Source: Naegleria gruberi (taxonomy: Eukaryota). From it: 64,000 nucleotides of DNA. The position numbers were made by a program, and so were the translations under genes. The DNA is taken from the NCBI GenBank assembly GCA_000004985.1, contig GG738903.1, one strand, 5' to 3'. The notes beneath the pieces are model-generated. The model worked only from the letters and a program-made list of their open reading frames with translations. It had not been told where the DNA came from and did no database searches. Numbering within the stretch: the first letter of the stretch is position 1; each line of letters begins with the position of its first letter. Positions 9,050 through 50,991 of the stretch are shown piece after piece.

Positions 9050-11413
9050 TTACAATATGATATCTATTGCACTCTCTTCTTTTAGTGAAATGTATTTTGG
9101 AATCAGTTTTTGCATTTCTTTTTCTAGTTCTGTTGTGAATTCTCTATTGTTTTTCAGCTCGTTTGAAGCAAATTTGAGAGTATATGGTATTTCCAATACC
9201 GCAGCAGTTACAATCTGCTTATCGTTTCTCAATTCCTCTGAGGCAAACTTGAGAGCATTTCCATTTTTAGAGATGGCTGCTAGTACTACTTGCCTATCAT
9301 TTTTCAGTTCCTCTGAGACATACTCGAGGTTTAATCCATTTTGTTGTACTTTTTGTAATGCTAATTCTCTATTATCTATTATTGATAGTGGTTGAGAGGA
9401 AAATACAAATGGTAAAATATAAGTAAATGGTTTTTTGAAAATGAGAATGTCGCCATCTTGTTTCAGTTCTTCAGATGCAAATCTAAAGGAAGAGCCATTG
9501 TTTTGAACTGCCTTCATAACAACCTCTTTGTCATTTCTCAATCTATCCGATGCATATTCAAGAACAATTCCATCCAGTTGAACTGCAGCTAGAACAATAT
9601 CCCTATCGTCCCTTAGTTCTTCTGTGCAGTGTTGTAAAGCTATTGGATTATTTTTAACTGCTTCCATAGCAATAATCTTGTTTCCTTTAAAAGATGTTCC
9701 ACAAAATTTAAGAGAATTTCCATTTTTTCTAATGGCCAAGCTAACTATTTCTAAATCATTCCTTAAAGCCTTACATGCATACCCAAGATTGTTACCGTCT
9801 CTTTTAATAGCTTCTGTAACAATATGACGATCTTTCTTCAATTCCTCAGATGCATAACTAAATGATCCACCATCGGTATTCATTGCCTCTATTATTACAT
9901 CCTTATCATTTCTCAAATTTTCACATGAATAATATAGAGCATTACCATAATTCTTCACTGCTTTCAAGACCATTTCCTTATCATTGTTGAAATGAGGAAT
10001 GCAACATAGTGCTTGTCCTTTTAATTCCATTATTTTTAACATGAATTCTCTATTATTCTTCAATTCTTCAGAGGTCAGTGATAGATTTTTAATTGCATCC
10101 TGAGGTTCACTCATCAATGCAACTTGATAAATGATTTGCTGATCATTCAAAAGTTTAGTAGAGGCATACATAATAGCGTTTGAATTTTGAGTAATAGCCT
10201 CCATTACAATTTCAAAATCATTTCTAAAAGAGAGTGCATATTCAAGAGACATGCCATTTTGTTTTACACACCCTAAAACAAGTTCTTTCTCTATCAAAAA
10301 GTCCTCTGGTGATACAAATTGAAGATTGAGGCCATTCTTTTCACATACATACGAAACAACACTCTTACTATTTTTAAATGGGTGTTTTAAATTTTGAAAA
10401 CAATCAACCAAGCTAGTAACTTTGCCATTCAAATTATCAAACATCACCTGAAATATATTTTCAATAGAATATCTATTGTCTTCGTGAATACATGTCATTC
10501 CTTTACATAAGTCCTTAATTACAATCCATGAAGAAGGATCATTCTCAAATTCGCTAATAGTGGTAGTAGTATTAGTAATAATATTTTGGAATAATGTTTC
10601 GATATCATTCCACAATTCTTCTTGTTGATATTTTAATTGTAAGTGAAATCGATCTAGAAATAGAAATGATAGAATAGTAATACCCAGACTAAAAATATCA
10701 CATTTGCAGGAACATTTTCCATTAAGGATTTCTGGAGCAATAAACCCAATTGTACCAGCAAAACCTGTAGCAGAAGAGTAACAGGAGCTAGTACAATCAT
10801 CAACCAATTGCTCATTATTTTCCTCATTTAACAATAACATATCATCTAAATTATTTTCTGCCATTGTGGCACATCCTAAATCTCCCAACACTATCATTCC
10901 CTCCTCACTCATAAAAATATTTTCCGGTTTAACATCTCTGTGAATGATATGATTCAGTGATAGGGATTGCAAAGCTCCACAACACTGCACAATGATTTGT
11001 AATACCATTAAAATTGAAACTCTTTCCAAGTTTTTTCTCACATCACGCAAATTATTTCCTCTAAATTTAGATATAATAACATATTCTCGTAAGGTTATAG
11101 AGGCTTCATCATCATCATTATAATTATTAAAAGTTTTCATCGATAAAACATTGGCATGATTTGTGTGTTTATACTTTTGCAAATACTCGCTTCTGGTTTC
11201 TCCAGTCTCAAGTAAACCTGAATCATCATGAATAATTTTAAAAACCATCAATGATTGATCGCTCATCTTTCTACACTTGTAAACCCATGTTGTTGGATTT
11301 CGGTAAATTTCTGCTATGGGAAAATAGTATTCACCTTGAAATTCAAAACTTGTTCCATTGTTGTTATTATGGAAAAGAAGCGAAGAAATGGTGGACTGAA
11401 GAGATTTGGTCAT
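9050..11413 (-). CDS. Ser/Thr protein kinase with about 15 C-terminal DUF4116 repeats
   Basis: 787-aa ORF. The kinase catalytic loop HRDVKPENIF, DLG (a DFG variant) and the activation segment GFIAPE are present. The C-terminal half is tandem ~25-aa repeats of the form (A/V)(V/I)xxNGxALxYASEELRNDKEIV, typical of DUF4116. Confidence 0.7.
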   Translation of the reverse strand: MTKSLQSTISSLLFHNNNNGTSFEFQGEYYFPIAEIYRNPTTWVYKCRKMSDQSLMVFKIIHDDSGLLETGETRSEYLQKYKHTNHANVLSMKTFNNYNDDDEASITLREYVIISKFRGNNLRDVRKNLERVSILMVLQIIVQCCGALQSLSLNHIIHRDVKPENIFMSEEGMIVLGDLGCATMAENNLDDMLLLNEENNEQLVDDCTSSCYSSATGFAGTIGFIAPEILNGKCSCKCDIFSLGITILSFLFLDRFHLQLKYQQEELWNDIETLFQNIITNTTTTISEFENDPSSWIVIKDLCKGMTCIHEDNRYSIENIFQVMFDNLNGKVTSLVDCFQNLKHPFKNSKSVVSYVCEKNGLNLQFVSPEDFLIEKELVLGCVKQNGMSLEYALSFRNDFEIVMEAITQNSNAIMYASTKLLNDQQIIYQVALMSEPQDAIKNLSLTSEELKNNREFMLKIMELKGQALCCIPHFNNDKEMVLKAVKNYGNALYYSCENLRNDKDVIIEAMNTDGGSFSYASEELKKDRHIVTEAIKRDGNNLGYACKALRNDLEIVSLAIRKNGNSLKFCGTSFKGNKIIAMEAVKNNPIALQHCTEELRDDRDIVLAAVQLDGIVLEYASDRLRNDKEVVMKAVQNNGSSFRFASEELKQDGDILIFKKPFTYILPFVFSSQPLSIIDNRELALQKVQQNGLNLEYVSEELKNDRQVVLAAISKNGNALKFASEELRNDKQIVTAAVLEIPYTLKFASNELKNNREFTTELEKEMQKLIPKYISLKEESAIDIIL

Positions 11414-22005: not shown

Positions 22006-25000
22006 TTACTTCTTTTTTTTAAATTCTGCAAGTAAAGAATGCGAAAGAACATCCTGAGCTTGAGGCCTTGTTAAATTATCCTTTTCAAGCATGCTCAATA
22101 CTAAATCGATAATTTCGTTCGAATATCTTTCCACCAATGTCTTTCTCAGCATTTGCACAACTTCTTTCTCATCTCTATGTCCATACAATTCGGAGATTGA
22201 CGTGGTTATGTCTTTGGTCATGATCTGATACATAACTACTCCCAAACTAAAGATATCTGCATTAAAGTAGTGTTTGTATACAGACACTATTTCTGGAGAT
22301 GAAAAGATTGGATTTACTTTCGTTCCAAAAACTCCATATCCAAAATCTGAAATTAATGCATGAATATTATCGTTATCCAAACTCTTGATGAGTAAATTGG
22401 AATGTTTGATGTTTGCATGAATGCATTTTTCAACACAATGTGAATATTCCAAACCTGTACATATTTGAAAAATGATCTGTTTCACTAACTTTTCAGAAAC
22501 ATTAAAGTTTCGATTAGTCAACTTGCTGAAATCACCCATTTCGAAATAATCCATATCAATGCAAATCTTTTGATCTATTGTACTCACGAAAATCTCATTA
22601 ATTTTACAAATATTTGGATTGGTAGTATTCAGTAGATGAACGGCTTGATTAAGGAATTTGTTCACATCTTCCTCAGATTTGTATTTGACAATTTTGATTG
22701 CTTTTGAACAATTCTTGACAGAATCGATTACTTTAAAGACATTTCCACTTCCAATTCTTGCAATATTGGTATATCTCAAGTGAGGATTGAATTCAGCACT
22801 GATGAAGGCATTTTCTAATTGGAAACTGTAACCACTGCTTGGTTTTAAGTAATATGCTTGAGTTGGAAGATTATCATAGACTAATTCAATATCTCCAGAG
22901 TTGATAGTAGCAACATTGGAAAGAGTTTCCGTTCTTGGTTGTTTCTTTTTCATTCTCCAAACAATGCAAATCAAGAGAATGATAACAATAATGATAATTA
23001 GAATAACAACAAATGCAACTGGAACTGCAATAGCTGCTGCAAGAGCACCTGTATCCATTCCTTGTTGAGCATTATCAGGATTTCTGTTATTACTCAATTC
23101 GGAAATTGGTGAAGATGGTTCTGTAACTATTGGAGGAATTGCTGGGTTGATAATATATGGTAATTCTTGAATGGTGAATAAACTGAGGTGGGATACTTGA
23201 CATTCTAAATCAAAATATAACAAGTCTCCATTTCGTTTTGTTATAGTTACAGAGCTGCTAATTCCTGATTGAGACCAACTTTTCGAATTATCAAGAAAGA
23301 CGCAGGATGCATTGATACCAGTCTTGTTAGCTGTAACAAGTCCTTCAAATTTGAAAATAATAGGATCTGCCAGATTGTCAACCTTCACTCCATTTCCATT
23401 CTTGTCATAAATTGACAAATCCAAAGATGGCCTCACTGAAAGAATATTTCCATCATTGGTGTCATTGGTAATCATTGTTAAGGCATAGAAAATCATAGAT
23501 TTTGATCCTAAATTTTGAACTTGTTCTGAAAATTTGCTTGGGAAGGTAATTTTCACATTCAACAAATCTTTGGAAATGGAAACTGATTTGGAATTGAATT
23601 GTTTTTCAAGTTGAAGGATTTGAGTGGAGATTAATCCATCAGAGGAGGATTTTCCTGTGAGTTTGTAGTAATCTAAATGATACTTGGCTAATTCTCCTTG
23701 CTTTGTTGCGTTATTGGAAAAAGTGTTCGAAAGAATGGTCATTAAACTTGAAATTTCATCAAAGTTCTTTGAATCTAACAGAGTTTTGTAAACATTGGAG
23801 GAATAATAGGAACGTGCTTGATTCATAGAAGCGAATATCCAGTCCATCCACCAAACTATTTCAGAACTAGTTGAAACTGAGAACTTTTCTAATAGATTAA
23901 AGATAGTCGAAATTGAAGGCAGAATTAATTGAACAATCTTTTCATCAGCGTTGTAGCTTAATGAAGGAATATCTTTCAGAGCACTCAACATATCAATAAG
24001 AATGGAAACTGCTTCTCTCTTTGCATCTTGTGAGATTATTCTTTCGGCGACATTATTCAAAGTTTCGTCTTGAGTAATTAATGATATTAAGGCATTTACA
24101 GAATTAATTGTATCTACAGTCAGTGGTTTGGATTGTCTCAGTGCAGCAAATTCATTACTGACATAATTAATTCTAGAAAGAAGTGAATTATTCGAAATAT
24201 CAATTTTTTCTGGCAATAGAGATGGCAAGTTATTTCTAAATTCACTCACAGTTCCAAATTCATTGATCATTTTCACAACCAAAACTAAACTTTGTTGATT
24301 GAAGAATGGTAAGTGAGTCACAATTGTATTTTTCAAACTATTCGAAAGGACAAATAATCTTTCATTTTGTGAGTGAACTTCCATTACAATACTAGAAATG
24401 GAATCTTGTGGAAGTGTTAAACAACTAATAGAAACCAAAGTTTCATGAGCAATAATATCCCTTTCGTTTTTCACTGTTTCTAATAAACAAGTAAATCTTG
24501 GTTTCATATCGATTCTAGTAGAAAGTGTCAACTTGGAAGAGCCATCTGTATTTGTAGTTTCCAATTCAAATTCGTAAAATTCACCTTCAATAAGATATTC
24601 TTTTCCAATATTAAGGTAAACTTCTAGGGAGTTTCCAACAAGAATATTAGAAACTGTGAAAAGTTCAAGATTTGGAGAATTTCTCAATTTTCCATTCAAG
24701 ACTTTCCAATTCAAAGTAACTAAACTTTCAGATTCGACCACACAATATAACGAAAGATTCTTTCCTTCTGGATATACTGATGGAATGTAATCTGGTGTTA
24801 ACTTAGGAACAGAAGTGGCAGAGTTGACCAATTCAATGTAACCAAAATAGGAGAAGGTACTTTCCGCTGTCGTAACATTGGTTCCTATCAAATAGATACC
24901 TTCAAAGAATCCAAGAGAATTAAAATCCGTTTCTAATTGGCAAGATGTTCCTTGACATAAATTATTCGAAACATCCATAATTGACTTGTCTAAAGTTCTG

Positions 25001-28000
25001 TAACAATACCAAGAATAAGATTTTGTAATAGAAGAAACGAAAGGATCATCACTTTCTAATGCAATTGTTAACTTTCCTGAATTTAGAGAAATAGTTCTGT
25101 TAACATTAGTTAATCTCAAGTCAATTGAATTGATTGGTGACTTTTTGATAGGATAGTCGATATTTAGAGTTGATTTAGATTCCCTATGCGTACCTATTAC
25201 CTTAAAAGTTGACAAATTTTCTTGTGGAATTCTTATCATTTGCTTATTAGAAAGCTCTGTATTTATCATTCCAGATACATCATACGAAAGTGAAGTATTT
25301 AATGACAGAGGAGATACTTCAAATAAACAATTATATCCTTTACATTCAAGATTATCAATCAAAACATTAAAGGAAGGAATAAGTTGTCCTTCTGGGTTGA
25401 CTTGAAGATTTTTAACACTTGAAGTCGAAATATACTTCTCATTAGTCGTATTCATCACAATATCGAATACATTCGGAATATCTTTCAATATACTCTTTGG
25501 AATACTAATAACTGTCTTGTTTGCATAATTGACCAAGGTGGAAGAAACAGTTTCAATGGAGGAAGACCAAATTTGAGAAATTTTCTTGAAATGATGATAT
25601 GAAGGTGGAATGTATGATCTGATAATCAAGTCCTGAGAGGATGGAATCAAATCTACGAGTTGCTGAATGGATGGAGTGGAAGGAGTTTGAGGAATTTCAA
25701 AGTCAACTTGGAGTTGAATTCCAAATGTTGTCTTGATAATTGAACCAGTTTCAATTAGATGATTATATCCTAAATAAATCTTGAGATTATTTCTTCTCCA
25801 TTGACATTTAAGCAAGTCAACTTGACCAAATTTGGAAATATCATTTTCTTGAATGAAATTTTCACATCCTTCAACTACAGATTCATTCAAAAACATGTTC
25901 AATACATTAGAATAGGAATAAATTATAGCATTATCAACATCCATTTGAACACTGAGATATTGACATTCATTTCCAACGAAACCTTTCAAACATTCACAAT
26001 TGTTTGGAGATTTACATTGGCCATTACCTGAACATACATTTGAATCAATTTCTGACTTGGAATAGCAAACATTGTATTGACAGTTTCCTCCTGTGAATCC
26101 AGTTTTGCATGAGCATTCGTCTGGTTTCAGACATTTACCCTTTCCAGAACAAACACTTTCGTTATTCGAAAGAACTCCATTACATTTGGCCAGAGAACAT
26201 TCTAAACCGTTCCAACCATTATTACATGTGCAATTATTGTAACTAGAGCATTTGCCATGACCAGAGCAAACATTTGGCATGTCAAAAGTCAGAGAATAAC
26301 ATTTGATTTTGTCACATTTGTCTCCACCCCATTCTTCTGAGCAAGTACAAGTACCACTAGTTAAGCATTGATAACCATTTTGACAAATGCTCTTATTAAC
26401 CCTTGAACAATTGAAAATGTCACAATCCAAACCAAAATAACCCAATTGACATTCACAAACATCTGGAGATTGACATGTGCCAGAAGCAGAGCAAACAGAT
26501 TGATTCAAACTTGATACACCAAAACAATCAAATAAATCACATAAACTTCCTCCATATCCTGAATCACATTTACAAATAGCAATTCCAGTTTCGTTTAAAC
26601 AAGTTCCATTTACACATTGTAAAGTACATGGATTTGGAATTTCACAATTGTATCCATAGTGGCTTGATTTACATGCACAAGTGTCTTTGTCTGTACAATT
26701 ACCGTGACCAGAACAAACTGTAGAGTTGAGTGAATTCACTCCATAACAGTTGAATTTTTCACATTCTTTTCCATAGTAACCTTCTTGACATGTGCAGTTA
26801 TCAAGTGATGAGCAGATTCCTCTTGATGAACAAACTGAAAGTGAGTCTTGAGCCTTTCCATAACAATCAAATTTTTCACAATTTTGTCCATAGTAAGGTT
26901 TTGTACAATTACATGTATCGATATTGGAACAATTACCATGTGATGAACAAACATCCTTCTTATCATTTCTTACACTGAAACAATCATAATACTGACAACT
27001 TTCTCCATAGAAACCTTGTTGACAAGAACAATTATTCAATGAGAGACACACTCCTTTTCCAGAACACACATTCGAATTGAGTGAGCTAACATTATAGCAA
27101 TTAAACTTTTCACACTCTTTGCCATAATAACCTTCCTTGCATGTGCAGTTATCAAGAGAAGAGCAGATACCTCTTGCTGAACAAACATCTCCCATATCAT
27201 TTCTGATACTAAAACAATCATAATATTGGCATCTTTCTCCATAGAAACCTTGTTGACAGGTACAGTTATTCAGGGAGACACAAACTCCCTTTCCAGAACA
27301 AACAGTTGAGTTGAGTGAGGAAACATTATAGCAGTTGAATTTTTCACATTCTTTTCCATAATAACCTTCTTGACATGTACAATTATCAAGTGATGAGCAG
27401 ATTCCTCTTGAAGAACAAACTGAAAGTGAGTCTTGAGCCTTTCCATAACAATCAAATTTTTCACAATTTTGTCCATAATAAGGTTTTGTACAATTACAAG
27501 TGTCAATATTTGTGCAATTACCATGTGATGAACAAACATCTCTCTTATCTTTTCTAACACCATAGCAATCGAATAATTCACAATTGCTTCCATAAAACCC
27601 TTGTTGGCAGGTACAATTGTTAGCAGAAACGCAACTTCCTTTTCCTGAACAAACTGTAGAGTTGAGTGAATTCACTCCATAACAGTTGAATTTTTCACAT
27701 TCTTTTCCATAATATCCTTCTTGACATGTGCAGTTATCAAGTGATGAGCAGAATCCTCTTGAAGAACAAACTGAAATCGAATCTTGAGCCTTTCCATAAC
27801 AATCAAATTTTTCACAGTTTGTTCCATAGTAAGGTTTTGTACAATTACATGTATCGATATTGGAACAATTACCATGTGATGAACAAACATCCTTCTTATC
27901 ATTTCTTACACTGAAACAATCGTAATACTGACACTTTTCTCCATAGAAACCTTGTTGACATGTACAATTATTCAATGAGAGACAAACTCCCTTTCCTGAG

Positions 28001-29612
28001 CAAACATTCAAACTAGTGTTCTTGACACCAAAGCAAGAAACTAATTCACAGTTACTTCCATGATATCCTTCAGAGCATGAACAATTGTTAGGAGAAACAC
28101 ATCGACCTTTCGAATAGGAACAAACTTCTGGACTAGTGGCCAAAATATTCGAACATTTAGGAACGTTACAATTGGAACCACCATACATTTCGGTACAGTT
28201 ACAAACTCCAGGTGCTAGACAATTTCCATTTCCTGAACATACGCTTGGAGAATTTGCCAAAACATTTCCACATTTGTGAATGTCACAATTTTGACCTCCC
28301 CAAAAAGTTGAATTCCAACATGAGCAATTATTTGCATAGACACATGTACCAATTCCAGAACAAACACTAGTATCATTAGCCATTATATTATTACATTTAG
28401 GAATTTCACAAAATTCTCCTCCCCAAAGTGAACTATTGAAACAATTACAAATGTCAAAATTCAAACAAACACCTCTTCCAGAACAGACATCTCCACTATA
28501 TTGGGGATAACCGAAACATACAGCTACACATTCATTCATAGTAGCATTGTATACATAACCTCCTGTGCAATAAGGTTCAATTTTTCTAATACGGAGATTA
28601 CCAGTATCTTTTTCAAAGTATTCGAAATATAAATTCTTCACTACTACTTACCAAGAATAAAAATATGACCTTCTGAACTAACATCCACATCATAGGTATT
28701 ATTCATCTTTACCAAATCACTTCCAGGAGTTTTAGCAACGCCTGAAAATAATGAAATTGTAGCTAAATTTTGGGTACCAGTAGTTCCATAAGAAAATTTC
28801 ACAACACGAACAACATGATTTCCTCTGTCAGCAATGTAAAGATCCTTGTTGGGTCCATAAGCAACTCCAGTAGGTGCGTTATACAAGGCATTGAATGCAC
28901 TGCCATCGGCATAACCAGCAGACCCAACACCTAAATAGGAAGTAGCTCCAGAGCCTGTCCTAATTAAACGATGAGTACCTGGTTCAGCAAAAGTCATTTC
29001 AGTACTAGAAAAGGCTGCGACTCCAGCGGATAGAGAACCTTGTACAATAAGTTGCTGAGTAGAGATGAAATTATTAGCTTTCGTATACTTTCTAACTCTG
29101 TAATTCAATGAATCTGAAAAGTAAATATTGCCATTTGGAAGTGAGGTAACATATTTCGGCTGATTTAGGTATGCATTTGTAGGGAGGGTATTCAAATCAT
29201 TGGCAACACCAGAAACTCCACATTTTCCAATAATTGTTTTAATCTGTCCATTGCTTACTTCTCTAATGACATGATTTAAAGTGTCAGCAATCAATAACTT
29301 TCCTTCTGATGTAACACATATACCACCTGGATAATTCAGCATGGCACCTGTAGCTGTAGTATTAGTGTCGTTTCCAGCAATTCCAGTTCCTGCCACGATT
29401 GTTACTTTCAATGTTGTCAAATCTAATCTTTTCACAAGGTGGTTTTTGGAATCTGAAATGAAAAGTTCATTATTATTACCAACAGCAATTCCTTCAGGAG
29501 AGTTGAAACCTTGTAGGTAGATGTGAGTGATGTTGTACAGAGGTGCAATAGAGTTGACTAAACTCAAGTGCAATAGTATTAGAAACAAGACGAAAGTAAT
29601 GAGTCTTGCCAT
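22006..29612 (-). CDS. giant receptor-kinase-like protein: signal peptide–NHL repeats–about 25 EGF-like repeats–about 1000-aa extracellular region–TM–pseudokinase
   Basis: Two track ORFs, 28644..29612 (signal peptide plus NHL repeats) and 22006..28641, are joined by a 44-nt phase-1 intron 28608..28651 (GTAAGTAG…AAAAG). The join is in frame: …FILG|DTGNLRIRK…. CDS = complement(join(22006..28607,28652..29612)). The TM is ALAAAIAVPVAFVVILIIIIVIILLICIVW. In the C-terminal kinase-like domain the VAIK lysine and DFG are kept, but the catalytic loop reads HANIKHSN (Asp to Asn, about 22411..22419) and APE is SPE. Confidence 0.7.
26650..28000. repeat. intragenic tandem repeats: near-identical three-EGF blocks (units of about 348 and 588 bp, combined period 936 bp) inside the giant receptor gene
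   Basis: The protein block DCYGKAQDS(I/L)SVCSSRG(F/I)CSSLDNCTCQEGYYGKECEKFNCY…CQQGFYG…DVCSSHGNC(S/T)NIDTCNCTKPYYG(Q/T)NCEKF recurs at least four times. The track shows near-identical out-of-frame ORFs 936 bp apart (26736..26966 vs 27672..27902; 26790..26978 vs 27726..27914). Boundaries are approximate. Confidence 0.7.
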
Positions 29613-38915: not shown

Positions 38916-41900
38916 ATGATTGCCTTTGGACCTGATAACGAAAATTCTTTTCATACACTCTACGAACGAGTTTCAAGCCTAAGTTTAATTAAAGAAAACA
39001 AGGATAGTACAACAAAATTCTTTCAACTCCTTGCTAATTTCAAATCAAGTTTTCAATTCAAGTTTCCAGTATGTACAACAACAATAATTGTTAAATTAAT
39101 TTAATTGAATAGGAAAAATCATCAGATGCCAGAAACAAAATTCAAACTAATAATGTAGATATTAAAGGAGTGCCTTCAACATTACCGGATTCACTTAAGG
39201 AATTGGTTCTCCAAGTGTCCGATGCTCTTAATCTTAACGAGTTGGTTGCTCTCAGCTTGATTTTTACAGCAACAAAAAGTAATCCAGTAAGTACTTGTAC
39301 ATATTACACAAATTTACTATTGAATTAGCCACAAGTTTATGGAGTACATGAATATCAATTATCTATCAAACTTTTTTACGAGGACTATTTAAAATTGTTA
39401 TCATCAGTATTGATTTTATTCCAATCTAGATTTAATGAAGATTTACATCCTAATACCAGAGATGTTGTTGTTAAATTTACTAATGAATTGTTGAGTGATA
39501 ATATTATTTCATCAATTTGTGAACAAATAACATCCACATCAAAACAAATTAACGAAGCTCAAAATTTAATTACTACATTGGAACAACAAGGTAATCAAGA
39601 TTCCGTAAAAGTATATCAATCAAGTGAACAAATCAAGTACAAAGTCGAAATAAGAAGAGGCTTTGCTGAATGTTTGTTCTTTGCTTGTTCAAATATACAA
39701 TGTGATGACGATACATTCTTCAAAGTATTTAACACATTCATTGGATTACAAAATTTGTTTAATCAATGTGTAGCTAACAGAATTGGAGAAAGACAAGAGG
39801 AGTTCTCATATAGCTTCCCATCTATTTTTGAATATCTTCCAATAGGTACAAAGAGTATCTTTAGCATATTGTACTTATTAACAACAACAATTCTTTCTTT
39901 ATTGGATCCAACAATCGGAAAGATTAGAATTGATCCTAAGGGTGTTACACAAAGTCCAAACAACAGCTTATACAAACAACAATTCATAGAGAAATTCGAC
40001 AAAATTTTGGACAATTTAATGCCTGATGATCATGATGATTTGAGCTATTTAATAGATAGAACTCAATTTGAAGCCATGACTGCTTTACAGTGGTGTGTTG
40101 GTTTAAGAGTTCAAAATAATATCAAACCAAATCTTGAATTATTAACAAGAAGTGATAATGCTTTCTCTAAGAGTTTATCGCGAGGAGTTTTTGCATTCAT
40201 CACAACTGGACTTTTGAATAACAAGGTTTACAGAAGTGAAAGTGAAAATGTCAAAGAATTTATTGTCAACATACTAGGTGACTTGATATCCAGTTTTATT
40301 GTAAATTTGGAAGATAGTATTAATGATTCATTGGTTGATCAAATTGAAGAATTGAGAAGTTATTTAACAAGAAGAGATGACAATCAAGCATCTGAAGAAG
40401 ATGAGCAAAATATTCCAAGAGAATTTAATGATATTTTACTGTTATTGGCTGAATTATATCGTGGATTCCCAAGTTATACTCACAAATACTTTGATAGAGA
40501 TGCTAATCCAAAATTGAACGATTTTTTGAGAAAGACATGCTGTGAACAAATTACTTCCCTTTGCAAATTTCAAGTAGAACTTGACGTAACATTCATTTAT
40601 TATTTGGGAGTACTTTGTTCATTCAGTGGAGATTCTGTGGGAGCAACGAATGTTTTTGCTCTTTTGAATGACTCTACTTATCCACTTTTTAGCTGGGAAT
40701 ATTTCTTTAAAGTATTACTTGAAGAATTCCGTTCACAATGTTCAAGTAATGATGATTTTGTTTTTGAGAAGAGAACTCTTGATGCAATTTCGATTGTTCT
40801 TAAGCTTGTAGAAGTTGTATGTAGAAACTCTGAACAGAGCAGAGTTGCAATTTTGGACAATACAAACTGGCGTGTGTTAGGTTTGCTTTTTGAAATGATG
40901 TATGCACCAAAAATTACACCATGTTTGATGGGTCAAGTTTTCTCCACCTTGTCATCATTCTTGAAACCATCCCAAGGTGAACCAAGCAACATTGCTTTTG
41001 CTATTATTTCACAAATGGGTAGAATTCTCCATTATGAAATTAGAGATCAAAAATACGAAGTCTCAAGCAAGGGAGGTATTAAGTATCAATTGAATTTTAG
41101 AGAAGCTCAAGAAGGAGAATACTATGAAACTTTAGGATTCTTAGAACTTATTGACGCTCTTATTTCTAGCACTGGAATGGCTATTGTTGGGTTCACACCC
41201 TTCCTCAAGTTTATCCAAGAAGATGTTTTTAATAATTTCTCAAAAAGATATTATAAGGACCAAAGTGATAAGTGGCTGATTGCAAAGTCTTGTCTACAAA
41301 TATTTACAAAACTTCTTTCCAGATACACCCCATCTACTTCTGATTTTGAGGAAGTTAAATCATCCGAAGACGAAACACCAAAAGTCAATGACCCTCCAGC
41401 TGGATTCCAACTTATGAGAGATATGCTTAGTGATACTATTTTCAGAAAAGAATTATTTAAAATTGTTATAGGAGAAGATTTTAATCTTGAAGAAGAAAGA
41501 TATAACAATAGAGAAGGAGAAGCTTTGGAAAGATCAGTTATTTATGCTTTGGAAATCATTGAAACTACCTTACTCAAAGAAGATGATTTCATTAAATGTT
41601 CTACAAGCAAGCTTCATTTGGTTCCATTAGTGATCAAACGTTTAGAGTACCAATTACCTAATTCATTAATAATTAGATTGATTGATCTTATTGATTATTC
41701 ACATAACAATGAAATCAGATATAGAGTTGTTAATATCCTTTGTTTGATTAGCAAGAATGCTACTAAGTTGGTAAGCTTGTTCAAGGACAAGCGTAAGGAA
41801 AAGACCGTGGTTAAGCTTTTCGTCAAGTATCTCCATGCTGTAACAACTGAAACAAACAGAGAATGCTCTGATGTTGAAGAAATTCCTGTAACAGAAGAGC

Positions 41901-44671
41901 AAAGAGATAATGAAACTAGATTAAGAATGTTAGACCTTTTGAAGGCTAATCTTGATGCTCCTGGAGAAAACTTGAGCCATTTATTATGTGGATTTGATGT
42001 TTCTAATGACGAACCAAGAGAAATCGACATTTTCAATGAAAAGACTTGTCTCACAGTAATTCTTAACTTGTTGAAATCTAAACAATTACCAATTACTCAT
42101 CCAAGATTTATTGAATCATGTTATGAACTTATTTACAAGTTGTGTGCTGATAGAAGAGTTAGTCAACAAACATTTGCTTGCCTTGAAAAGGCCAACTTTT
42201 TGATTGATAAGTTGAAGAATGCTAACTTCTCCACAAAGATTGAACCGTCACCTCTTGCCCATCATATTCTCAACCAAAGAGGTTTTGTTATTAGAATTGT
42301 TGCTCTCAAATTATACTCTAACACAAAGGCATTCAAGAAGGGTGATAGTAACAGAGGAGGTGTTCAAGAATTGGTACACATTCTTTTTGGTGGTGACTCA
42401 CTTTCTGATTTCAGTCGTTCTTACGATTTACTTGAGCAAAGAAGAGCCCTCATGCTCGAAATTTTGGACACTATCGACTTGAACTTGGCTCAAAATGCTC
42501 CTGCACAAGATTCAAAGGAGTGGAAACTTTTCTTGAAGAATTGGGCATCAACTTCTAACTCATTCGATGGATGGAAACAAGTAGTAGAAATTACTTTGTC
42601 CCAATGTTTTGGTATGATTCCGGATGATGGAATGAGACTGAGAATATTGCACGATATTATTAGTTCATTGCTTTTCAAACTTTTCCAAATGAAGAGAATT
42701 AACAAAGGTAAACAACAACAAAAATTGGAACTTTTGGTTTCTCAAGTAATTTTGAGAGTCATGTCCAAGTTAAGAGAGGAATTCATTACTAGTGGTGAAG
42801 TCATCATGCTTCCAGTTGATCAATGCCTCACAATTTTCAGAAATTTACTTGAATGCATTTTACTTTCTGAACAAAGTGAACAATCCATAAGAGGTAATCT
42901 TTACTCTACACTTATCAACTATTTGCAATACACCAAGAGAAACGAGCTTAACTATGGAAGTGATCAAATAATGAATCTTCAAAAGAATACTGAACACATT
43001 ATTGACAAGTATGACTTGAGAGTTTTCGCCCTTGTAGCTAAGGATGCATTGGATGCTAAGAACATTTGGAAGGCTGTTTCTTACTCCCTTTTGGAAACTT
43101 TCTTCACATACACCACTAACATTGCCCAAAGAGGTAAATGGATCACTTACTTTGAGTCAAGTGGATGTTTGAAACAAATTTTGGATAGTGTTATGACAGA
43201 AGCCAAACATTCCTTGCCTAAGGTGTTACAACCAACCCTTCACGATACTGATGCCTCTTCTTTAAACAGACTTTTCATTTATGAAAATGCTATGTCATTC
43301 CTTCTCAAGTTTACTGATGTTGATGTTAAGAGTGCTGAAATTATGATGAGCTTTGAAGTTATTACCAAGATTTGCTCGCATTTCACCTTTATCGATTTGA
43401 GACCTTCAATTGTTTCTCATCAATATGGCAGAAAGATGGATATGGAAGATGATATGGAAGCTGACTGGGAGCCTTCTATCACTGAAAAATATAATCAACT
43501 TGTTATTCCTGCAATTAAGCTCATTGTCGCCATTCAATCACATATGAGAATTAATAAGAAGGTTGCTGAACAAGTCTTGTCATTTGTTGAGCTACACAGA
43601 AAGTCAATTTCTGCAATTCTTAAGATGGAAAATATTCAAAAGAATTTGATTAATATTGATTCGGGTTCTTTGGAATTGGTTCGTTTGGTTACAGAGATGA
43701 TGTATCTTTTGTCTCTTCATCAAGACGTTATGTCTTCTAAATTACATACTAATAAGTATGAAAAGTTAATGTTGAACGCGTTGGTTAAACTGAATACTAT
43801 TCAACAATTGGGATCTACGAAGAAGACTATCAATATTCTTGATGCCAACATGGCTGATGAAAATGGTATCAGAACTGGAGAGCTGCAATTCGAGTATAGT
43901 TTGGAACAAAAGAGATGTTGTATTGACGAAATTTGTAAAACAATAATCAATTTCTGTAGAGTAGTATGTCAATACCCAGAATTCTTAACTAGTGGATCAA
44001 GTTTGGAACTGATAGGAAAAGTTCTATTTACCCATTTTATTTCTGGACCAAATTCAGCTTCAGGTAAACAAATGGCCTTGGATGAAGATATTATTCCAAA
44101 GCCATTCGAGCTTGACCAAAGACCATCTATTCATGTACTTGGTTTGTTGTTGCAAAATGGATACCATAGATTGAACAATGCTCTCGAGGAAAGATTTACT
44201 TGTGAATCCAACTTGCAACAATTGGATCAATTGAAGATTGAACAATTGAATAATATTGTTCGTTCAGCAAACACAATTTTAGGAGAAGAACATTTCTTAA
44301 GCTTCTTTGAAAAACAAGACAGTGTTCCAAATGAAGCCAAGTTGCTTTGCCGAACAATTCTTTCCAGAAAATTACTTAAACTTGATATCCACCTCAACAC
44401 TCACATCAGTTTGTTAGAAAATACTTTGATTGTTTTATTCAGACACATCAGTTTCTATGTACAAAATAGAGAATCTCCATTATCTGCTGAGCAAAGAACA
44501 CAACTCTTACAAGAAGCAACAACTGGAACACTCAACAAGTTGTTGGATGAAATTCTCCAAATGCAAATTCCAAAATCTTTACTTCAAAGATATTCCACAG
44601 TTGACAATATTTTCCATTTGACTATTGCTCAACGTCTTAAAAACCTAATTTTCCAAGTTAACATTGAATAA
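38916..44671 (+). CDS. NUP205: nucleoporin Nup205/Nup192 homologue (three exons)
   Basis: CDS = join(38916..39068,39113..39286,39329..44671), with introns of 44 and 42 nt (GTATGT…TAG; GTAAGT…TAG). The spliced N-terminus …VDIKGVPSTLPDSLKELVLQVSDALNLNELVALSLIFTA… aligns with human NUP205 as I recall it (…RLLPEQLIKEAFILSDLFDIGELAAVELLLAG…). Internal matches are FTPFLKFIQEDVFNNFSKRYYKDQSDKWLIAKSCLQIFTKLL against FDPYLQFLRDSVFLRFRTRAYRRAAEKWEVAEVVLEVFYKLL, and YELIYKLCADRRV against CYQVIYQLCACSD. Confidence 0.75.
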
Positions 44672-44805
44672 ATTATTGAATTGAAATCTTTATTATGAAA
44701 CTTGATGTTGGTTGGACAGATGAACTTGAACGTTGGTACTGTAATTGTATTACAGAAACACGAAAGGCCCATTTATTTTTTGGCTTTTCTCACACAGAAA
44801 AAACA

Positions 44806-47800
44806 ATGAAAAAGGTATTTGGTAGTTACCATTGCCAACTTTTAGTTTTGTTGGCTTTTTGCATGTGTTTTGTGCAATCAACAAATATTTATCAATCATC
44901 TTCATCAAATTCCTCTATTTATTATAATAATTTGGCCACCTATAGTGTTCAAACAATTATTGGATATCCGAGGCCATTGCAAAATTACTTTCCGAGTGGT
45001 TTGCCAGCCACTTACTATTGGGGATTATCAATACAGGCAATTGTATTGCCACGAAATGGTGATGGAAGTTTACATGGTGATGAAATTATTTACATCTCCT
45101 CCATGGAAATAATTTACAAATATTCAAAACAAGATGGACTATTGAGAAAGTTATCATTTAGTGGTGAGAAATGGTATGATATTTCATCATTCTTTGTTTT
45201 GAAAACTCAGGAAGGAGGAACTTTAATATATGTTACTTCCAATAGACTCGAGTCGACTGTTTATTCGGCAAGTGAAGAAAGTGGAACTGTTCAGAGGATT
45301 GCAGGTTCTTTGAGTTCATCGGGATATAATGGTACGTAATGGAGTAAATTGATTTTGTAATATGAGAATGTACATTGTAAAGGTGATGGAAAACCAGCTA
45401 TCGATTCCTTACTGAGCCAACCTCAATCTGTATTTGTTAAGGATGGTGAGGTTTATATTTGTGATACAAATAATCATCTGATTCGACGTATTGATAGGAA
45501 TGGAATTTTATGGAATGTTTTTCGTAAGTGTGTGTTAATTTTCAATTTATTTAAAACATTTAATATTTCTAAAAACAGAAAAAGGGTTTGTAAGGGAACC
45601 ACAACAACTAATTTTTGCAGGGAATGATATGGTAGTAAACACAGGCAATTTGATTCTTAGAATATTTCCCAATCAAACATATGAAACTCATTATGCTTTC
45701 TATTCATTTTCTAAAGCTGCTGTTTTTGAAAATGATATCTACTATATCAATTATGGTAGTATCCAGAAGGCAATTGGTTCATATTCCTCTGAGACTGTGT
45801 TAGTGTTTGAAAAATCTGCCAAAATTCCTAGAATTCTAACAATCAACAATGAGGGAAATTATTTAGTTTCAGTTGGAAACGTTTTAAAAGAATTTCAGAG
45901 ATATAATGATAGTATTGGAAGAGTTGTGATTGGAACATCGGATTCTAATCTTCAATACTATACATTACCAGCAAATATCTCAGATATTCAAAACGTTGAA
46001 TCGATGACACTTTGTGAAGAGGACAATTCCATTATTTTCACTCAACATTCGTCTTCTGTTATAAGACATTATGTTCCAAACAAACCATTCATGGATGTTG
46101 TTGGAATGAATGTGGATAAGATATCTTTTATTTCAAAGTATGGGAATGATATGTATGCAATTGTGAATAATAATATTTACTTGAGGAATAACCAAGGAAA
46201 TTTCACTCAATTATCAGGATTGCTATCACCAGTCAATGTACCTGATAATATTAAGGCAACATTATCAACCTTAAACAATCCTAGAGGAATATTTCTTAAA
46301 AACCAAAAACTGTACATTTCTGATTCGAATAATCATAGAATACGAGTAATTGATATACAAACTGGACTTATTTCTACATTGGCAGGAAATGGAATTGCAA
46401 ATTTTAGTGGTGATGGGCTAGCCGCAACAGAAGCATCCCTAAACTCTCCATCTGGTGTATTTGTTTCAGAGTTTGGAAAAATTTATATATCTGACTCTGG
46501 TAATCATAGAATTAGAGCTATTCTTCCAAATGGCATTATTTCAACTGTTGGAGGTAATGGTATTCCTGGATTTTCGGGTGATAATGGTTTGGCTACTAAT
46601 GCAAGTCTTAACAACCCCTATGGCATAGTTGAAACATATAGTGGTGACTTGATTATTTCTGATTCTGATAACAATAGAATTAGACTAATCGATAGATATG
46701 GAATTATCACAACTCTAGCTGGAACAGGAGAGAAAGGATTCCAGGATGGATTCTTTCTCGACGCGTTATTTAACAATCCATCTCAATTATTTTACTTCCA
46801 TTCCCGCTTGTACATTTCAGATACATATGGCCAAAGGATTCGTGAAGCAAATCTTGAATCAAAAACCGTAAAAACAATTATTGGAACAGGAGAGAAGGGA
46901 TACAATGGAGATAATTTCCCAACCACCACTCAGCTCAATAACCCTCTATCAATGTTTATTACATATAATAATATTATTTACATTGCAGATACTGACAACA
47001 AGAAAATAAGAATGTTGAATACGGGTATTGTATCAACACTAGAGCTTACTTTTGAATCTCCAAAGGGAATAACTGGAGATGATAAATTTCTCTATATCAC
47101 CGATGGGAATTTAGTTAAGAAAATTGATATTGCCAATGGTTATAGAGTTGAAATTATTGGAGGTGGAATTGGTGATGGTTGGTACTTGAAGTATGCAATT
47201 CTTAATGCTGAAAACCTTGCTTTTGATGATGAGAAGAATGTTTATTTTACAGATTCTTCTCATAATGTTGTAAGAAAGTTCAATACAATGAATGGAATAG
47301 TGAGTACAGTAGCAGGAAGGACTAGTACATTGGGATATGAAGGTAAGTTTCAATTACTACTAATATCTCATTAAAAAAACAACAGGTGATGGTGGATTGG
47401 CTGTTGGGGCTCTCTTAAATTTTCCAAAAGGTATTGCAGTTTCCAAGTCGAGTTTAGGATTCTTTCTCTATATTTGTGACTTTGAAAATCAACGCATTCG
47501 AAGAGTTAATTTGGAAACTGGAATAATAACAACAGTAGTAGGTACAGGTCAAAAAGGATATAGTGGTGATGGAGGGTTAGCAATTTATGCCAAGATTACT
47601 AATCCAACACATATAGCTGTCAACAAGGAAGGAGAAGTTTTCTTCTCAGATTACAATTATGTAAGGAAAATAACAAGAAATGGATATGTTTATAGAATAT
47701 CTGGTGCTCAAGGAGGAACTGATTTTAATGGAGATTCATATCCTGCTTTGGAAACAGGTTTCAGTATTACAAGTAAGTATTTTATCTCCGTTTTGAAATT

Positions 47801-49429
47801 CATATTTCAATTCAGAAACTTTAATGGTAGATAATACTGGAAGTATTGTTGTTTTCGATTATAACAATCAAATTATTAGAAAGTTAATTCCTCACTGTGA
47901 AACTGGCTATAGTTTGGAACCTGAAACTAATTCTACATGCATTCCAAATTGTTTTGGAATTTATGGAAAAACAATTAATGCTTGTTCTTCACATGGATTT
48001 TGTAAAAGTTTAGATCAATGTGAATGTTATTCTGGTTATTCTGGATCAAATTGCTCAGAATCAATATGCTTTGGTAAGACGGGATCTGGAGCATGTAATG
48101 GCAAAGGAATTTGTGTTTCACCAAATGTTTGTCAGTGCTTGGATGATTATTCAGGTATTGATTGTTCGATACCTAAAACAGTTTTAATTTTAGTTGGAAG
48201 TTTGATTGCTTGTGGCTTGGTTATTGTAATAGTTTTTGTAATTTCTGTTTCAATGGTCTTTGTCTATATTCAAAATCAAAGAAAGAAGAGAGCAATCCTC
48301 ATGACTGACAAATTATTAGACAAGAGATTGCTTATGGATGATTTTGCATCCTATAATTCTTCAATGGGGATCAGTAATAGTGAACTCAATGAAGCAGATT
48401 TTGTTATTCCACTGGAACAGTTGGATATGGATCATCCAATCAAGAGGATTGGTGAAGGTTCTTTTGGAAGAGTATTTTCTACAAAATGGGGAAACCAATT
48501 AGTTGCCGTTAAGGTTGTGGACATGAATGATTTTGACATGTCGGAGGAAACTTTCAAACAAGAATTTCAAATCTTGTCACGTTTAAGACATCCAAAAATT
48601 GTCTCCTTCTATGGCATTTCATTTTCTCCAACGAAGAGATATATTGTTATGGAGCTTTGTGAACACAGCTTGGAACATGTCATTAGTCAATTGCAGAATC
48701 AAGTTATTCAAATGGATTTACAGGAAAAGATTGATATTCTAATAGATATTATTGAGGGAGTGAATTATTTACATACCTTGACTCCAAAATGCCTTCATAG
48801 AGATTTGAAACCCCTCAATATTCTTGTGAGCTTTCAGAAAGAATACAAATTATGCGATTTTGGTGTTGGAAAGATTTTAAACTCAAAAACTGTCAATTCT
48901 TTGACCAACAATGGTAAGTTTCAATGAAATTGTTCTCAATATTTAATTATATTCACAAAACACAATAGTGGGGACGTGTTACTATATGGCTCCAGAAACT
49001 ACAGGATGTGAAAGTTTACAAGAATCTGAATCAGTTTGTGCTACTTCAATAGATATTTACAGTCTGGCCATTATTTTCTACCAATTATTATTTGAAGTGA
49101 AAGAGCCCTATATTTCATGTCATGATAGAGTTTTGAAAAAGTTGAAAATGAATGAACCACTACAATTGACTAACATGTACCATTTGCATAGATTAGTGAT
49201 TGAGAAAAACCTCAGACCTATCATTCCATTTTCTTCTGCAAAGGAATGTCAACAATGGTGTCAGGAATATCTATCACCAACAGATGCCAAATATCATAGC
49301 ATTTTCTATGAGATTTGTCAATTAACTAAACTATGTTGGGATAAACAACCAAAAACGAGACCAAGTGCAAAAACTATTTTAGAACGACTCCATGGTTGGA
49401 AGAAAGAAATTGAAACAAAGTATTACTAA
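44806..49429 (+). CDS. receptor Ser/Thr/Tyr-type kinase: signal peptide–NHL repeats–EGF-like module–TM–active kinase (six exons)
   Basis: CDS = join(44806..45331,45383..45523,45579..47342,47386..47772,47816..48913,48969..49429), with introns of 51, 55, 43, 43 and 55 nt, all GTA(A/C)GT…AG and phase 1. It re-joins track ORFs 44695, 45629, 47397, 47824 and 48968. NHL repeats look like ISDSNNHRIRVID. EGF-like cysteines CxCxxGYSGSNC are present. The TM is LILVGSLIACGLVIVIVFVI. The kinase has IGEGSFGRV, VAVK, HRDLKPLNILV, DFG and GTCYYMAPE, the last spanning the final intron. The acceptor of intron 4 has an alternative in-frame site 15 nt downstream. Confidence 0.7.
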
Positions 49430-49493: not shown

Positions 49494-50727
49494 TTATTCT
49501 GAACTTGAGGATGAGGCAGTAGATACTTGTATAACTTTGCACTTTTCAAAAACTCTTTTGAATGCCAAATAGTTGGATTGATCTTTTCCATCTTCCAAAA
49601 TAGCAAACACAATACTCTTAAAACTATTTGGAAATTCCTGAGTTATTACTTCATAAAACAATTTAGCCATATGATTTTCTGAAATAAATTGAATTCAATA
49701 AAACAAATAATTAAATAATTAACTTACCTGGATTCTTGTATGCTCCACATCCAAAAGCACTCAACACAATACTCAAATGTCCATTATTAAGAGCTGCATA
49801 AAGAATTCCTCTAATTTTCTGTCTTGTTCCTTCCTCAAACTTGCTCGTCATCATGAGTTGATTTGTCTTTTTATCTAAAAAGGTATTTGGTCTAATGAAA
49901 GCACTTGCTGCAATGATTGAAATTTCCAATGGTTGATCCAAATATTCGAAAGCACTTCCTTCTCCGTGTCTTAATAATTGAACATTGGGTGAGTAAATGA
50001 TATCATAATCAGAAAGTGGATAGAACTGATCTGGGCCAATAACTGAAACTATTTGTTGATCAGGGGAAGGTTTCTTACAATTTGGATTAAACTTTTTGAA
50101 AATATCATTTGGATCTAATAGAGAATAAATGTAATTTGTTGATCTGAAGAGAGCTTCTTCTTGACTTTTCTGTCCAGTTTCAAAACCTCCACCAGCTCTC
50201 TTCTTACTTGCCATATTTAGCACAACTGGATTCATTCCATTTTTGTGTAATTTGAAAATAGTTTCAACACAATCTTCCTTAATTACTTCAATGGTAGTAG
50301 CAAATTGTTGATTAGTAGAGGTGGAATTGAAGACAATCTTCTCAATTTCATTAAATTGATATAACTTATTCTTTGCCAATTGTTGCTCATAAATTTCTTT
50401 ATCCAAGTTTCTAATAGAAACTTTCTCCTTCTTTGAATTATAATAAAACCCTCTCTGTAATGACAACATTGTATCCTTCATGACATAAATCCTCATTCCC
50501 TTCAATGCATCTGGATTATTCTCATTCAAATATCGTTGATGCCACTTTCTAAAAACAACCGAATTAAAAACTGGTGATTGTAACAATAATTTATCCGCAT
50601 TTTCTTGAATTTGATTATAGCTCTGATCAAGAGGATCCGATAAATCAATAGATTGTTGCTGATTTCCCTTTGGATTATTTGCTGATTTATCATCCGATGA
50701 TTTTCCTGGTTTCTTGTTTTTTACCAT
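49494..50727 (-). CDS. bacterial-type poly(ADP-ribose) glycohydrolase-like macrodomain protein (DUF2263/TIGR02452 family; two exons)
   Basis: CDS = complement(join(49494..49678,49728..50727)), with a 49-nt intron (GTAAGTT…TTTCAG). The signature VLNMASKKRAGGGFETGQKSQEEALFRS (GGG-x7-QEE) and the C-terminal SAFGCGAYKNP|ENHMAKLFYEV are characteristic of microbial-type PARG. The track's upstream extension to 50937 runs through poly-T promoter-like sequence, so I start at MVKNKKPGKSS. Confidence 0.65.
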
Positions 50728-50991
50728 TTTTTTTTTATTTTTTTTTAAAGTTTTAATTTTTTCAAATTGGAAATTGAAATTTAGCCAAGTTTTAATTTTC
50801 AAATTCAAATTTAACTTCAAGGCAACTTCCTGGAGTAAAATCCAAATTTCACAGGAAAGAATAAACCCTATTATATTCATATTGCCATTTCGAATAATAT
50901 TAACTCCTAACATTTTACAATAAATTAATATGACCAATAATACGATAGAATCAAGTAGATCAATAATCTATTTAAACGAAAGTGAAATAAT

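Follow-up and report, generated by a model that had tools for sequence, protein, structure and literature searches.

Introduction

Many receptor pseudokinases are known from animals and plants. In HER3 (ErbB3), the catalytic aspartate is replaced by asparagine, and in the JH2 domain of the JAK kinases the motif reads HGN, with the β3 lysine and the DFG motif being retained. The GAIN domain is discussed almost solely as a hallmark of adhesion G protein-coupled receptors (GPCRs) and polycystin-1-like proteins. Here, we describe a gene of the discoban amoeboflagellate Naegleria gruberi, NAEGRDRAFT_73188, which is predicted to combine the two, encoding a single-pass receptor with a GAIN domain ahead of the membrane and a catalytically impaired kinase-like domain behind it. 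The gene lies on the minus strand at 22006..29612 of a stretch of 64,000 nucleotides from contig GG738903.1 (assembly GCA_000004985.1), hereafter called the window.

In published accounts, GAIN is linked to seven-transmembrane and polycystin bodies and to holozoans, apart from isolated reports for Dictyostelium and Tetrahymena (PMC3321182, PMC12716839), and recent work places the module of GAIN and seven transmembrane helices in stem holozoans (PMC12716839). A single-pass isoform of Drosophila Cirl works with the seven-transmembrane form (2026 adhesion-GPCR review, PMC13197933), which sets a precedent for units of GAIN and one transmembrane helix, although all of these lack a kinase. In the literature that we searched, there was no description linking GAIN to Naegleria, Discoba, Heterolobosea or a receptor kinase, and a survey of protist transmembrane kinases contained no mention of Naegleria, NHL, EGF or GPS. 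As far as we found, an architecture of GAIN, a single transmembrane helix and a kinase is undescribed in this literature.

Gene model and domain order

The locus contains two open reading frames (ORFs) on the minus strand, 28644..29612 (322 aa) and 22006..28641 (2,211 aa). An earlier reading of the DNA, made from the letters alone and referred to below as the sequence-only reading, had joined the two through a 44-nt intron into one gene for a receptor of about 2,500 aa with NHL repeats, EGF repeats, a transmembrane helix and a kinase domain. Excision of 28608..28651 (44 nt) resulted in a coding sequence of 7,563 nt, free of internal stops, and a protein of 2,520 aa, in which Pfam recognised NHL, EGF and Pkinase and which has one transmembrane helix. 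The spliced product is letter-for-letter identical to the N. gruberi entry XP_002671728.1 (EFC38984.1, D2VVY9, NAEGRDRAFT_73188), whose public annotation reads only "predicted protein" or uncharacterized protein. The gene model is already public, and what is new here is the annotation at the level of function.

Three independent lines of evidence argue for one spliced gene. The intron (GTAAGTAGTAGTGAAGAATTTATATTTCGAATACTTTGAAAAAG) begins with GTAAGT, ends with AAAAAG and is in phase 1 inside the last NHL repeat, where its removal joins "...GHIFILGK", followed by a stop in the unspliced frame, and "...EKDTGNLRIRKI" to GHIFILDTGNLRIRKI, a canonical NHL repeat. Four introns of the gene at 44.7–49.4 kb of the window have the same style, with a 5' GTAAGT and lengths of 43–55 nt. 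Finally, the closest paralogue, NAEGRDRAFT_49308, is a single uninterrupted ORF and reads EVFILDSGNNRIRKLTPYC across the junction point. Since this paralogue has no intron, either NAEGRDRAFT_73188 acquired it or the paralogue lost it following the duplication. A 98%-identical allele of the paralogue, again a single intron-less ORF, is present at 501..7001 of L001, from the ENA metagenome contig ERZ929261 k127_28711.

Exon 1 (28652..29612, minus strand) encodes aa 1-320 and the first base of codon 321, comprising the signal peptide and the larger part of the NHL propeller, and is identical to the RefSeq model; exon 2 (22006..28607, minus strand; stop at 22006..22008) encodes aa 321-2520, as supported by translation and RefSeq identity. 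The order of domains is signal peptide, NHL repeats, 22 EGF repeats, a spacer of ~580 aa, GAIN/GPS, one transmembrane helix and the kinase-like domain, which corresponds to a type I single-pass receptor.

Related proteins in Naegleria

The family of this protein was found by an exhaustive HMMER search using the 943-aa spacer as query; a word-indexed search with the kinase domain only yielded just a 41%-identical N. gruberi kinase. The closest relative is NAEGRDRAFT_49308 (XP_002676784.1, D2VGC0), a protein of 2,167 aa encoded on a different scaffold and annotated as 'predicted protein'. It shares the end-to-end domain order and is 60% identical overall, 58% in the spacer and 72% in the kinase domain. 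It has HGN (SIHGNIKTSN) in the catalytic loop and shares with NAEGRDRAFT_73188 the deletion in the glycine loop, the shortened activation loop and the GPS core (LECQVSHLSLFTIQELPYI), which is identical in both. On the other hand, its EGF array is shorter by about 9 repeats, the intron at the NHL junction is absent, and the helix-C glutamate is kept.

NAEGRDRAFT_70916 and NAEGRDRAFT_70317 of N. gruberi and FDP41_013523 of N. fowleri share the arrangement NHL–EGF–spacer–GAIN/GPS–transmembrane helix–kinase, with spacer plus GAIN being 32–38% identical over >930 aa. In contrast to NAEGRDRAFT_73188, they have GQGAFGSV, HRD(I/V)KPSN, DFGLA and a full-length activation loop and are, on the basis of these motifs, predicted to be active. 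Comparison of the motifs across the family showed HAN and HGN in the two genes described above versus HRD in five relatives. By these motifs, loss of the aspartate defines a two-gene subfamily in N. gruberi, which stands beside active paralogues.

Two relatives from N. lovaniensis, C9374_013475 and C9374_007198, consist of NHL, EGF, GPS and a transmembrane helix followed by a short tail, without kinase. The GAIN module in Naegleria is thus not restricted to kinase receptors. The GPS of these kinase-less proteins (C..W..G..C.TSHLTSFAVID) resembles the animal consensus more closely than the GPS of the members with a kinase does. The public models of NAEGRDRAFT_70916 and NAEGRDRAFT_70317 stop just after GTP(I/L)FM with short odd tails at a point where the relatives go on with SPE, and look like the result of a missed intron, with the C-lobe of the kinase lost.

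The candidate GAIN domain and GPS motif

The sequence-only reading had left a region of about 1000 aa between the EGF array and the membrane unassigned. For its first ~580 aa (aa 1206–1784) this still applies, as no family could be assigned to them. The last ~350 aa, however, form a GAIN domain with a GPS motif, as judged from a structure model and from conservation in the family. Pfam returned no GPS, GAIN or REJ match for the whole region, and searches of PDB sequences with the region as a single sequence or as a long profile gave nothing useful. Using fragments of the individual members, in contrast, GPS (PF01825) was the sole Pfam family that matched 7/7 members, with a best E of 7.9e-4. 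In a profile search against PDB sequences, the GPS of ADGRF1 ranked first and was aligned in register.

The GPS motif (aa 2089-2133; 23170..23304, minus strand) is located just ahead of the transmembrane helix and runs C2089-VFLD…W2098-SQSG…C2123-QVS-H2127-L2128-S2129-L-F, with G2102 between W2098 and C2123 and with the phenylalanine at position 2131. The seven family members are 29–71% identical to NAEGRDRAFT_73188 in this stretch, and exactly the C, W, G, C, H, L and F are invariant among them; the H-L-S/T motif is intact and conserved in all seven.

AlphaFold2 with an alignment of the seven sequences gave a model with a pLDDT of 82.7 and a pTM of 0.82 (one model, from a shallow alignment); the single-sequence prediction (pLDDT 49) was unusable. 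The model starts with about ten helices, after which comes a β-region of ten strands; we take these as a helical bundle corresponding to GAIN subdomain A (aa 1785-1973; 23650..24216, minus strand) and a β-sandwich corresponding to subdomain B (aa 1974-2136; 23161..23649, minus strand). H2127-L2128-S2129 occupies the turn that connects the final two strands of the model, 375-384 and 389-394. The conserved H-L-S/T…F points to autoproteolysis between Leu2128 and Ser2129 (HL↓S), and the predicted His-Leu-Ser site (23182..23190, minus strand) is found 45 aa before the transmembrane helix at aa 2174-2204, i.e. immediately N-terminal to the first membrane-spanning segment.

Compared to the GAIN domains of adhesion GPCRs (BAI3, CELSR1, GPR126, GPR110, latrophilin), which are followed by seven transmembrane helices, the one described here precedes a single such helix and a kinase-like domain, retains just one disulphide of two, shows sub-threshold sequence similarity and comes from a discoban amoeboflagellate. 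No seven-transmembrane Pfam family matched the protein, which with its single helix does not belong to the adhesion GPCRs. With polycystin-1 and suREJ, in which REJ and GAIN precede a multi-pass membrane part, it shares a long and hard-to-assign outer region before a membrane-adjacent GAIN/GPS. It is not a polycystin-1-like protein either, as REJ, PLAT and PKD_channel gave no Pfam match at E<=10 and there is only a single transmembrane helix.

The kinase-like domain

The kinase-like domain (aa 2263-2520; 22009..22782, minus strand) matches Pfam Pkinase (PF00069) with an E of 1.2e-31 and 110.5 bits (cut-off 31.7) over positions 4-262 of the 263 in the profile, and has a kinase fold by this measure. 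Its nearest solved kinases in a PDB search are the STE20-type STK25 and MST3. For identification of the motifs, it was aligned with an active Naegleria relative, the kinase of the neighbouring gene and PKA. Translation and alignment bear out the claim of the sequence-only reading that the catalytic aspartate is lost: the catalytic loop CIHANIKHSNLLI (HANIKHSN; 22396..22419, minus strand) contains His2384, Ala2385 in place of arginine and Asn2386 in place of the catalytic aspartate, with Asn2391 kept. The codons of the HAN motif are CAT GCA AAC at 22419..22411, and the asparagine is encoded by AAC (22411..22413) instead of the AAT given earlier.

Three further lesions accompany this loss. The glycine-rich loop IGS---GNVF (22735..22755, minus strand) has a 3-residue deletion relative to IGQGAFGSVF, as is likewise the case in the paralogue (IGSGRTF), and thus has no intact GxGxxG. 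At the helix-C position, Gln2308 (22645..22647, minus strand) replaces the conserved glutamate, which the paralogue keeps; of the β3/helix-C pair, the lysine is present. The activation segment following DFG is ~7 residues shorter than in the active relatives and ends with SPE. This SPE for APE (SSPE in full) had been reported correctly, but it is the norm in the family, also among the active relatives, and does not mark a pseudokinase. The other two elements that had been listed as remaining are indeed there, namely the lysine of VAIK as Lys2292 of AIK (22693..22695, minus strand) and DFG at aa 2408-2410 (22339..22347, minus strand); the metal ligands, i.e. the DFG aspartate and Asn2391, are thereby both present.

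An error of sequencing or assembly at the catalytic codon would be a trivial explanation for HAN, since the exchange of aspartate for asparagine alone amounts to a single G to A change (GAC to AAC). The exchange of arginine for alanine, however, needs two more changes, so that at least three are needed to go from HRD to HAN. In addition, two independent assemblies, NEG-M and the ENA metagenome contig, agree on HGN in the paralogue, and the indels of the glycine loop and the activation loop are in frame and common to both genes. These points, together with the strong selection on the domain described below, exclude a base error for all practical purposes.

The identity between the HAN and the HGN gene is highest in the kinase-like domain (72%), compared to 52–64% in the other domains. 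We calculated the ratio of nonsynonymous to synonymous substitutions (dN/dS) by the Nei–Gojobori method (NG86) against the DNA of the paralogue (L001). The value for the kinase domain, 0.12, was the lowest of six domains, with 0.21 for EGF, 0.22 for GAIN, 0.33 for the spacer, 0.43 for NHL and 0.55 for the stalk, transmembrane helix and juxtamembrane segment, dS being about 1.1 and thus near saturation, so that more trust can be put in the order of the domains than in the values themselves. The metagenome and the NEG-M versions of the paralogue, both of which have HGN, differ in 42 residues, with only one of these differences in the kinase domain. The lowest dN/dS and the highest identity together indicate that purifying selection acts on the kinase domain more strongly than on any other part of the protein.

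These data also bear on whether NAEGRDRAFT_73188 is a decaying duplicate, be it a pseudogene of recent origin or a copy of an active receptor kinase under relaxed constraint. Remodelling of its EGF array by recent tandem duplication and the exchange of the helix-C glutamate for glutamine, which is specific to this copy, would fit such a history. Conversely, the frame is intact over 7.5 kb, and the kinase domain, at a dN/dS of about 0.12, is 72% identical to that of the HGN paralogue; we therefore consider decay very improbable. With the HRD aspartate gone in two paralogues and the domain kept under selection, the domain is by sequence a maintained pseudokinase rather than the product of an error or of a decaying gene, and presumably no longer phosphorylates substrates efficiently. 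The prediction of a pseudokinase receptor is thus strengthened by the lesions in the glycine loop, helix C and activation loop, by the HGN paralogue and by the selection.

Proposed mode of action

Taken together, we consider it likely that NAEGRDRAFT_73188 is a type I, GAIN-bearing single-pass receptor with a catalytically impaired but conserved kinase-like domain that works as follows. By analogy to adhesion GPCRs and polycystin-1, the GAIN domain would cut itself at HL↓S in the secretory pathway, and the adhesive fragment of NHL, EGF and spacer would stay non-covalently bound to the fragment with the transmembrane helix and the pseudokinase. A ligand or a mechanical pull on the long ectodomain could then alter the state or the pairing of the intracellular domain, which would act as a nucleotide-binding or allosteric/scaffolding module without efficient phosphotransfer, like HER3 or JAK JH2. 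The likely mode would be pairing with the active members that share the ectodomain, NAEGRDRAFT_70916 and NAEGRDRAFT_70317. The comparison with HER3 and JAK JH2 extends to the class of lesion and to the existence of active relatives as possible partners; it ends at the kinase groups, which are unrelated (here STE20-type STK25/MST3), and at the ectodomain, which is unrelated as well, and the pairing of NAEGRDRAFT_73188 is putative.

Several observations weigh against this proposal, at both ends of the protein. Regarding the intracellular part, Lys2292, Asn2391 and DFG are retained, which leaves 'dead' unproven, and kinases with an aspartate-to-asparagine exchange such as HER3 and JAK2 JH2 keep weak activity. 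Members of the pseudokinase subfamily outside N. gruberi-type sequences were not found by the HMMER search or a metagenome scan. Regarding the GAIN domain, the Pfam GPS match of NAEGRDRAFT_73188 itself, over positions 2-43 of the 45 in the profile, reaches only 14.0 bits (E 0.076), short of the 22.5 bits of the gathering cut-off, the match to the ADGRF1 GPS profile has an E of only 0.52, and a Foldseek search of the GAIN model against the PDB returned no GAIN domain and nothing significant. The first tryptophan of the GPS is absent, and the stalk from GPS to the transmembrane helix is longer than in adhesion GPCRs. A single helix also means that there is no seven-transmembrane pocket for a tethered agonist, which makes the coupling step speculative. 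In CL1, the GPS disulphides are C801–C832 and C820–C834 (Araç et al., PMC3321182); the Naegleria family keeps the cysteine pair equivalent to C801–C832 (C2089 and C2123), and both partners of C820–C834 are replaced in 7/7 members, leaving only one of the two canonical disulphides. Judged from the sequences, one pair kept and the other lost wholly is, on the other hand, what a genuine GPS in simplified form would be expected to show.

The retained β3 lysine, catalytic-loop asparagine and DFG aspartate, which are found in both the HAN and the HGN gene, would also fit a weakly active atypical kinase with slow phosphotransfer, e.g. autophosphorylation, as reported for HER3 and JAK2 JH2, and the purifying selection on the domain fits a catalytic and a non-catalytic role alike. 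Such an enzyme would have to work with four independent lesions, i.e. the deletion in the glycine loop, the glutamine for glutamate in helix C, the replacement of both the arginine and the aspartate of HRD, and the truncated activation loop, and we regard it as unlikely, though far from negligible.

A second alternative concerns the outer region, where the GAIN-like domain could be a non-cleaving structural stalk, with signalling brought about by ligand-induced oligomerisation of an otherwise ordinary single-pass receptor. The missing disulphide and tryptophan and the sub-threshold Pfam GPS score agree with this, as does the GAIN domain of BAI3, which is uncleaved despite its fold (Araç et al., PMC3321182). 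However, the H, L, S/T and F at positions -2, -1, +1 and +3 are invariant in members that are only 27-33% identical to NAEGRDRAFT_73188 over the GAIN-like region, which is hard to explain without selection on the chemistry of cleavage. We thus treat the stalk as a serious possibility, albeit the less probable one.

Returning to the proposal of a self-cleaving receptor, it may be extended to the family as a whole. This would then represent an undescribed class of receptors in which a self-cleaving GAIN domain is joined by a single transmembrane helix to a serine/threonine kinase or pseudokinase, members with HRD and with HAN or HGN pair with each other, and force or ligand acting on the NHL-EGF part is read through dissociation of the GAIN domain. 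We put this extension forward tentatively and rather doubt that all of it will hold.

The pseudokinase call alone would be a sound but ordinary annotation, contributing one case from Discoba in which HAN and HGN are conserved as a pair. The finding of GAIN carries more weight and is the most interesting feature of the gene. If true, it means that a GAIN module can drive an output quite different from seven-transmembrane or polycystin bodies, offers a simple system to probe GAIN cleavage without the pocket for a tethered agonist, and widens the known phylogenetic range of GAIN. The domain would then appear as a general and portable mechano-proteolytic switch, and, being present in Discoba in addition to animals, amoebozoans and ciliates, it would date back to the last eukaryotic common ancestor or close to it. 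A function-level annotation is also obtained for seven or more proteins so far labelled 'predicted' or 'hypothetical' in N. gruberi, N. lovaniensis and N. fowleri, the last of which is a lethal human pathogen.

Further features of the receptor

The signal peptide (MARLITFVLFLILLHLSLVNS, aa 1-21; 29550..29612, minus strand) is assigned from the sequence and is one of only two hydrophobic segments. It is followed by a β-propeller of NHL repeats (aa 22-333; 28570..29549, minus strand, a range that spans the intron), for which Pfam NHL (PF01436) gave an E of 2.5e-24 with 3 scored stretches; five clear xxDxxNhxIR motifs are visible, the fifth of which lies across the splice site.

The EGF array (aa 351-1202; 25963..28518, minus strand) consists of six-cysteine repeats of the tenascin/teneurin type with a period of 39 aa (Pfam EGF_TEN 8.5e-66, EGF_2 3.4e-56). 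A regular expression for the six-cysteine pattern counted 22 of them, slightly fewer than the about 25 estimated in the sequence-only reading. At the DNA level, a repeat scan of 26740..28006 revealed tandem repeats of 117 nt, corresponding to one EGF, and of 351 nt, corresponding to three EGFs (80% matches). They account for most of the ~9 EGF repeats that NAEGRDRAFT_73188 has in excess of NAEGRDRAFT_49308 (2520 versus 2167 aa), and the organisation of 117-nt units in a 351-nt higher-order repeat suggests ongoing unequal crossing-over in the ligand-binding arm. A relationship to teneurins was considered and rejected, since the matches to Pfam models named after teneurins are confined to their generic NHL and EGF parts. 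Teneurins are type II proteins with a YD-repeat shell and a toxin-like C-terminus, whereas NAEGRDRAFT_73188 has an N-terminal signal peptide and a C-terminal transmembrane helix.

The spacer (aa 1206-1784, ~580 aa; 24217..25953, minus strand) is specific to the family. Per-member Pfam searches and profile searches of the PDB assigned no family to it and gave weak hints of the Ig/PKD type only; homology over its full length is confined to Naegleria proteins, with ENA metagenome fragments covering parts of it. A REJ-like spacer is unsupported, as Pfam REJ is absent at E<=10. Past aa 2136, a proline-rich stalk leads to the transmembrane helix (22957..23049, minus strand), which in a hydropathy scan is the only hydrophobic segment after the signal peptide. 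The juxtamembrane segment between this helix and the kinase-like domain comprises, by difference, ~60 aa (2205–2262).

Neighbouring genes

The gene at 44695..49429 (plus strand) encodes a further receptor kinase, with many NHL repeats, 2-3 EGF repeats abutting one transmembrane helix, and at least four short GTAAGT introns. It resembles NAEGRDRAFT_73188 in having NHL, EGF, one transmembrane helix and a cytoplasmic kinase, which with HRDLKPLN, CDFG and MAPE is apparently active, but it is without spacer and without GAIN/GPS. The sequence-only reading had placed it, at 44806..49429, as the active paralogue with the same architecture. This does not hold, as the alignment of the two kinase domains gave 23% identity, and the actual active paralogues, NAEGRDRAFT_70916 and NAEGRDRAFT_70317, are located at other places in the genome. 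We therefore rejected the gene as a close paralogue; by sequence, the two share types of domains rather than close ancestry.

Eight ORFs in the neighbourhood of NAEGRDRAFT_73188 match N. gruberi NEG-M proteins exactly, all from a single scaffold of 304,373 bp. Four other ORFs of the window are worth mentioning. The minus-strand ORF at 9050..11413 (787 aa) has an N-terminal protein kinase domain and about 11 DUF4116 repeats (E 4.5e-142). No entry of the protein collection has exactly this sequence, and the public model probably differs. At 39395..44671 (plus strand), an ORF of 1,758 aa matches the Nup192/Nup205 family of nuclear-pore scaffold proteins (E 1.5e-81); its listed TTG start is probably wrong, and an upstream exon is likely. 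On the minus strand, an ORF with a PARP catalytic domain (50992..53460) is located directly upstream of an ORF for a microbial-type PARG on this strand (49711..50937), and 49711..53460 is possibly a gene pair consisting of a writer and an eraser of ADP-ribosylation.

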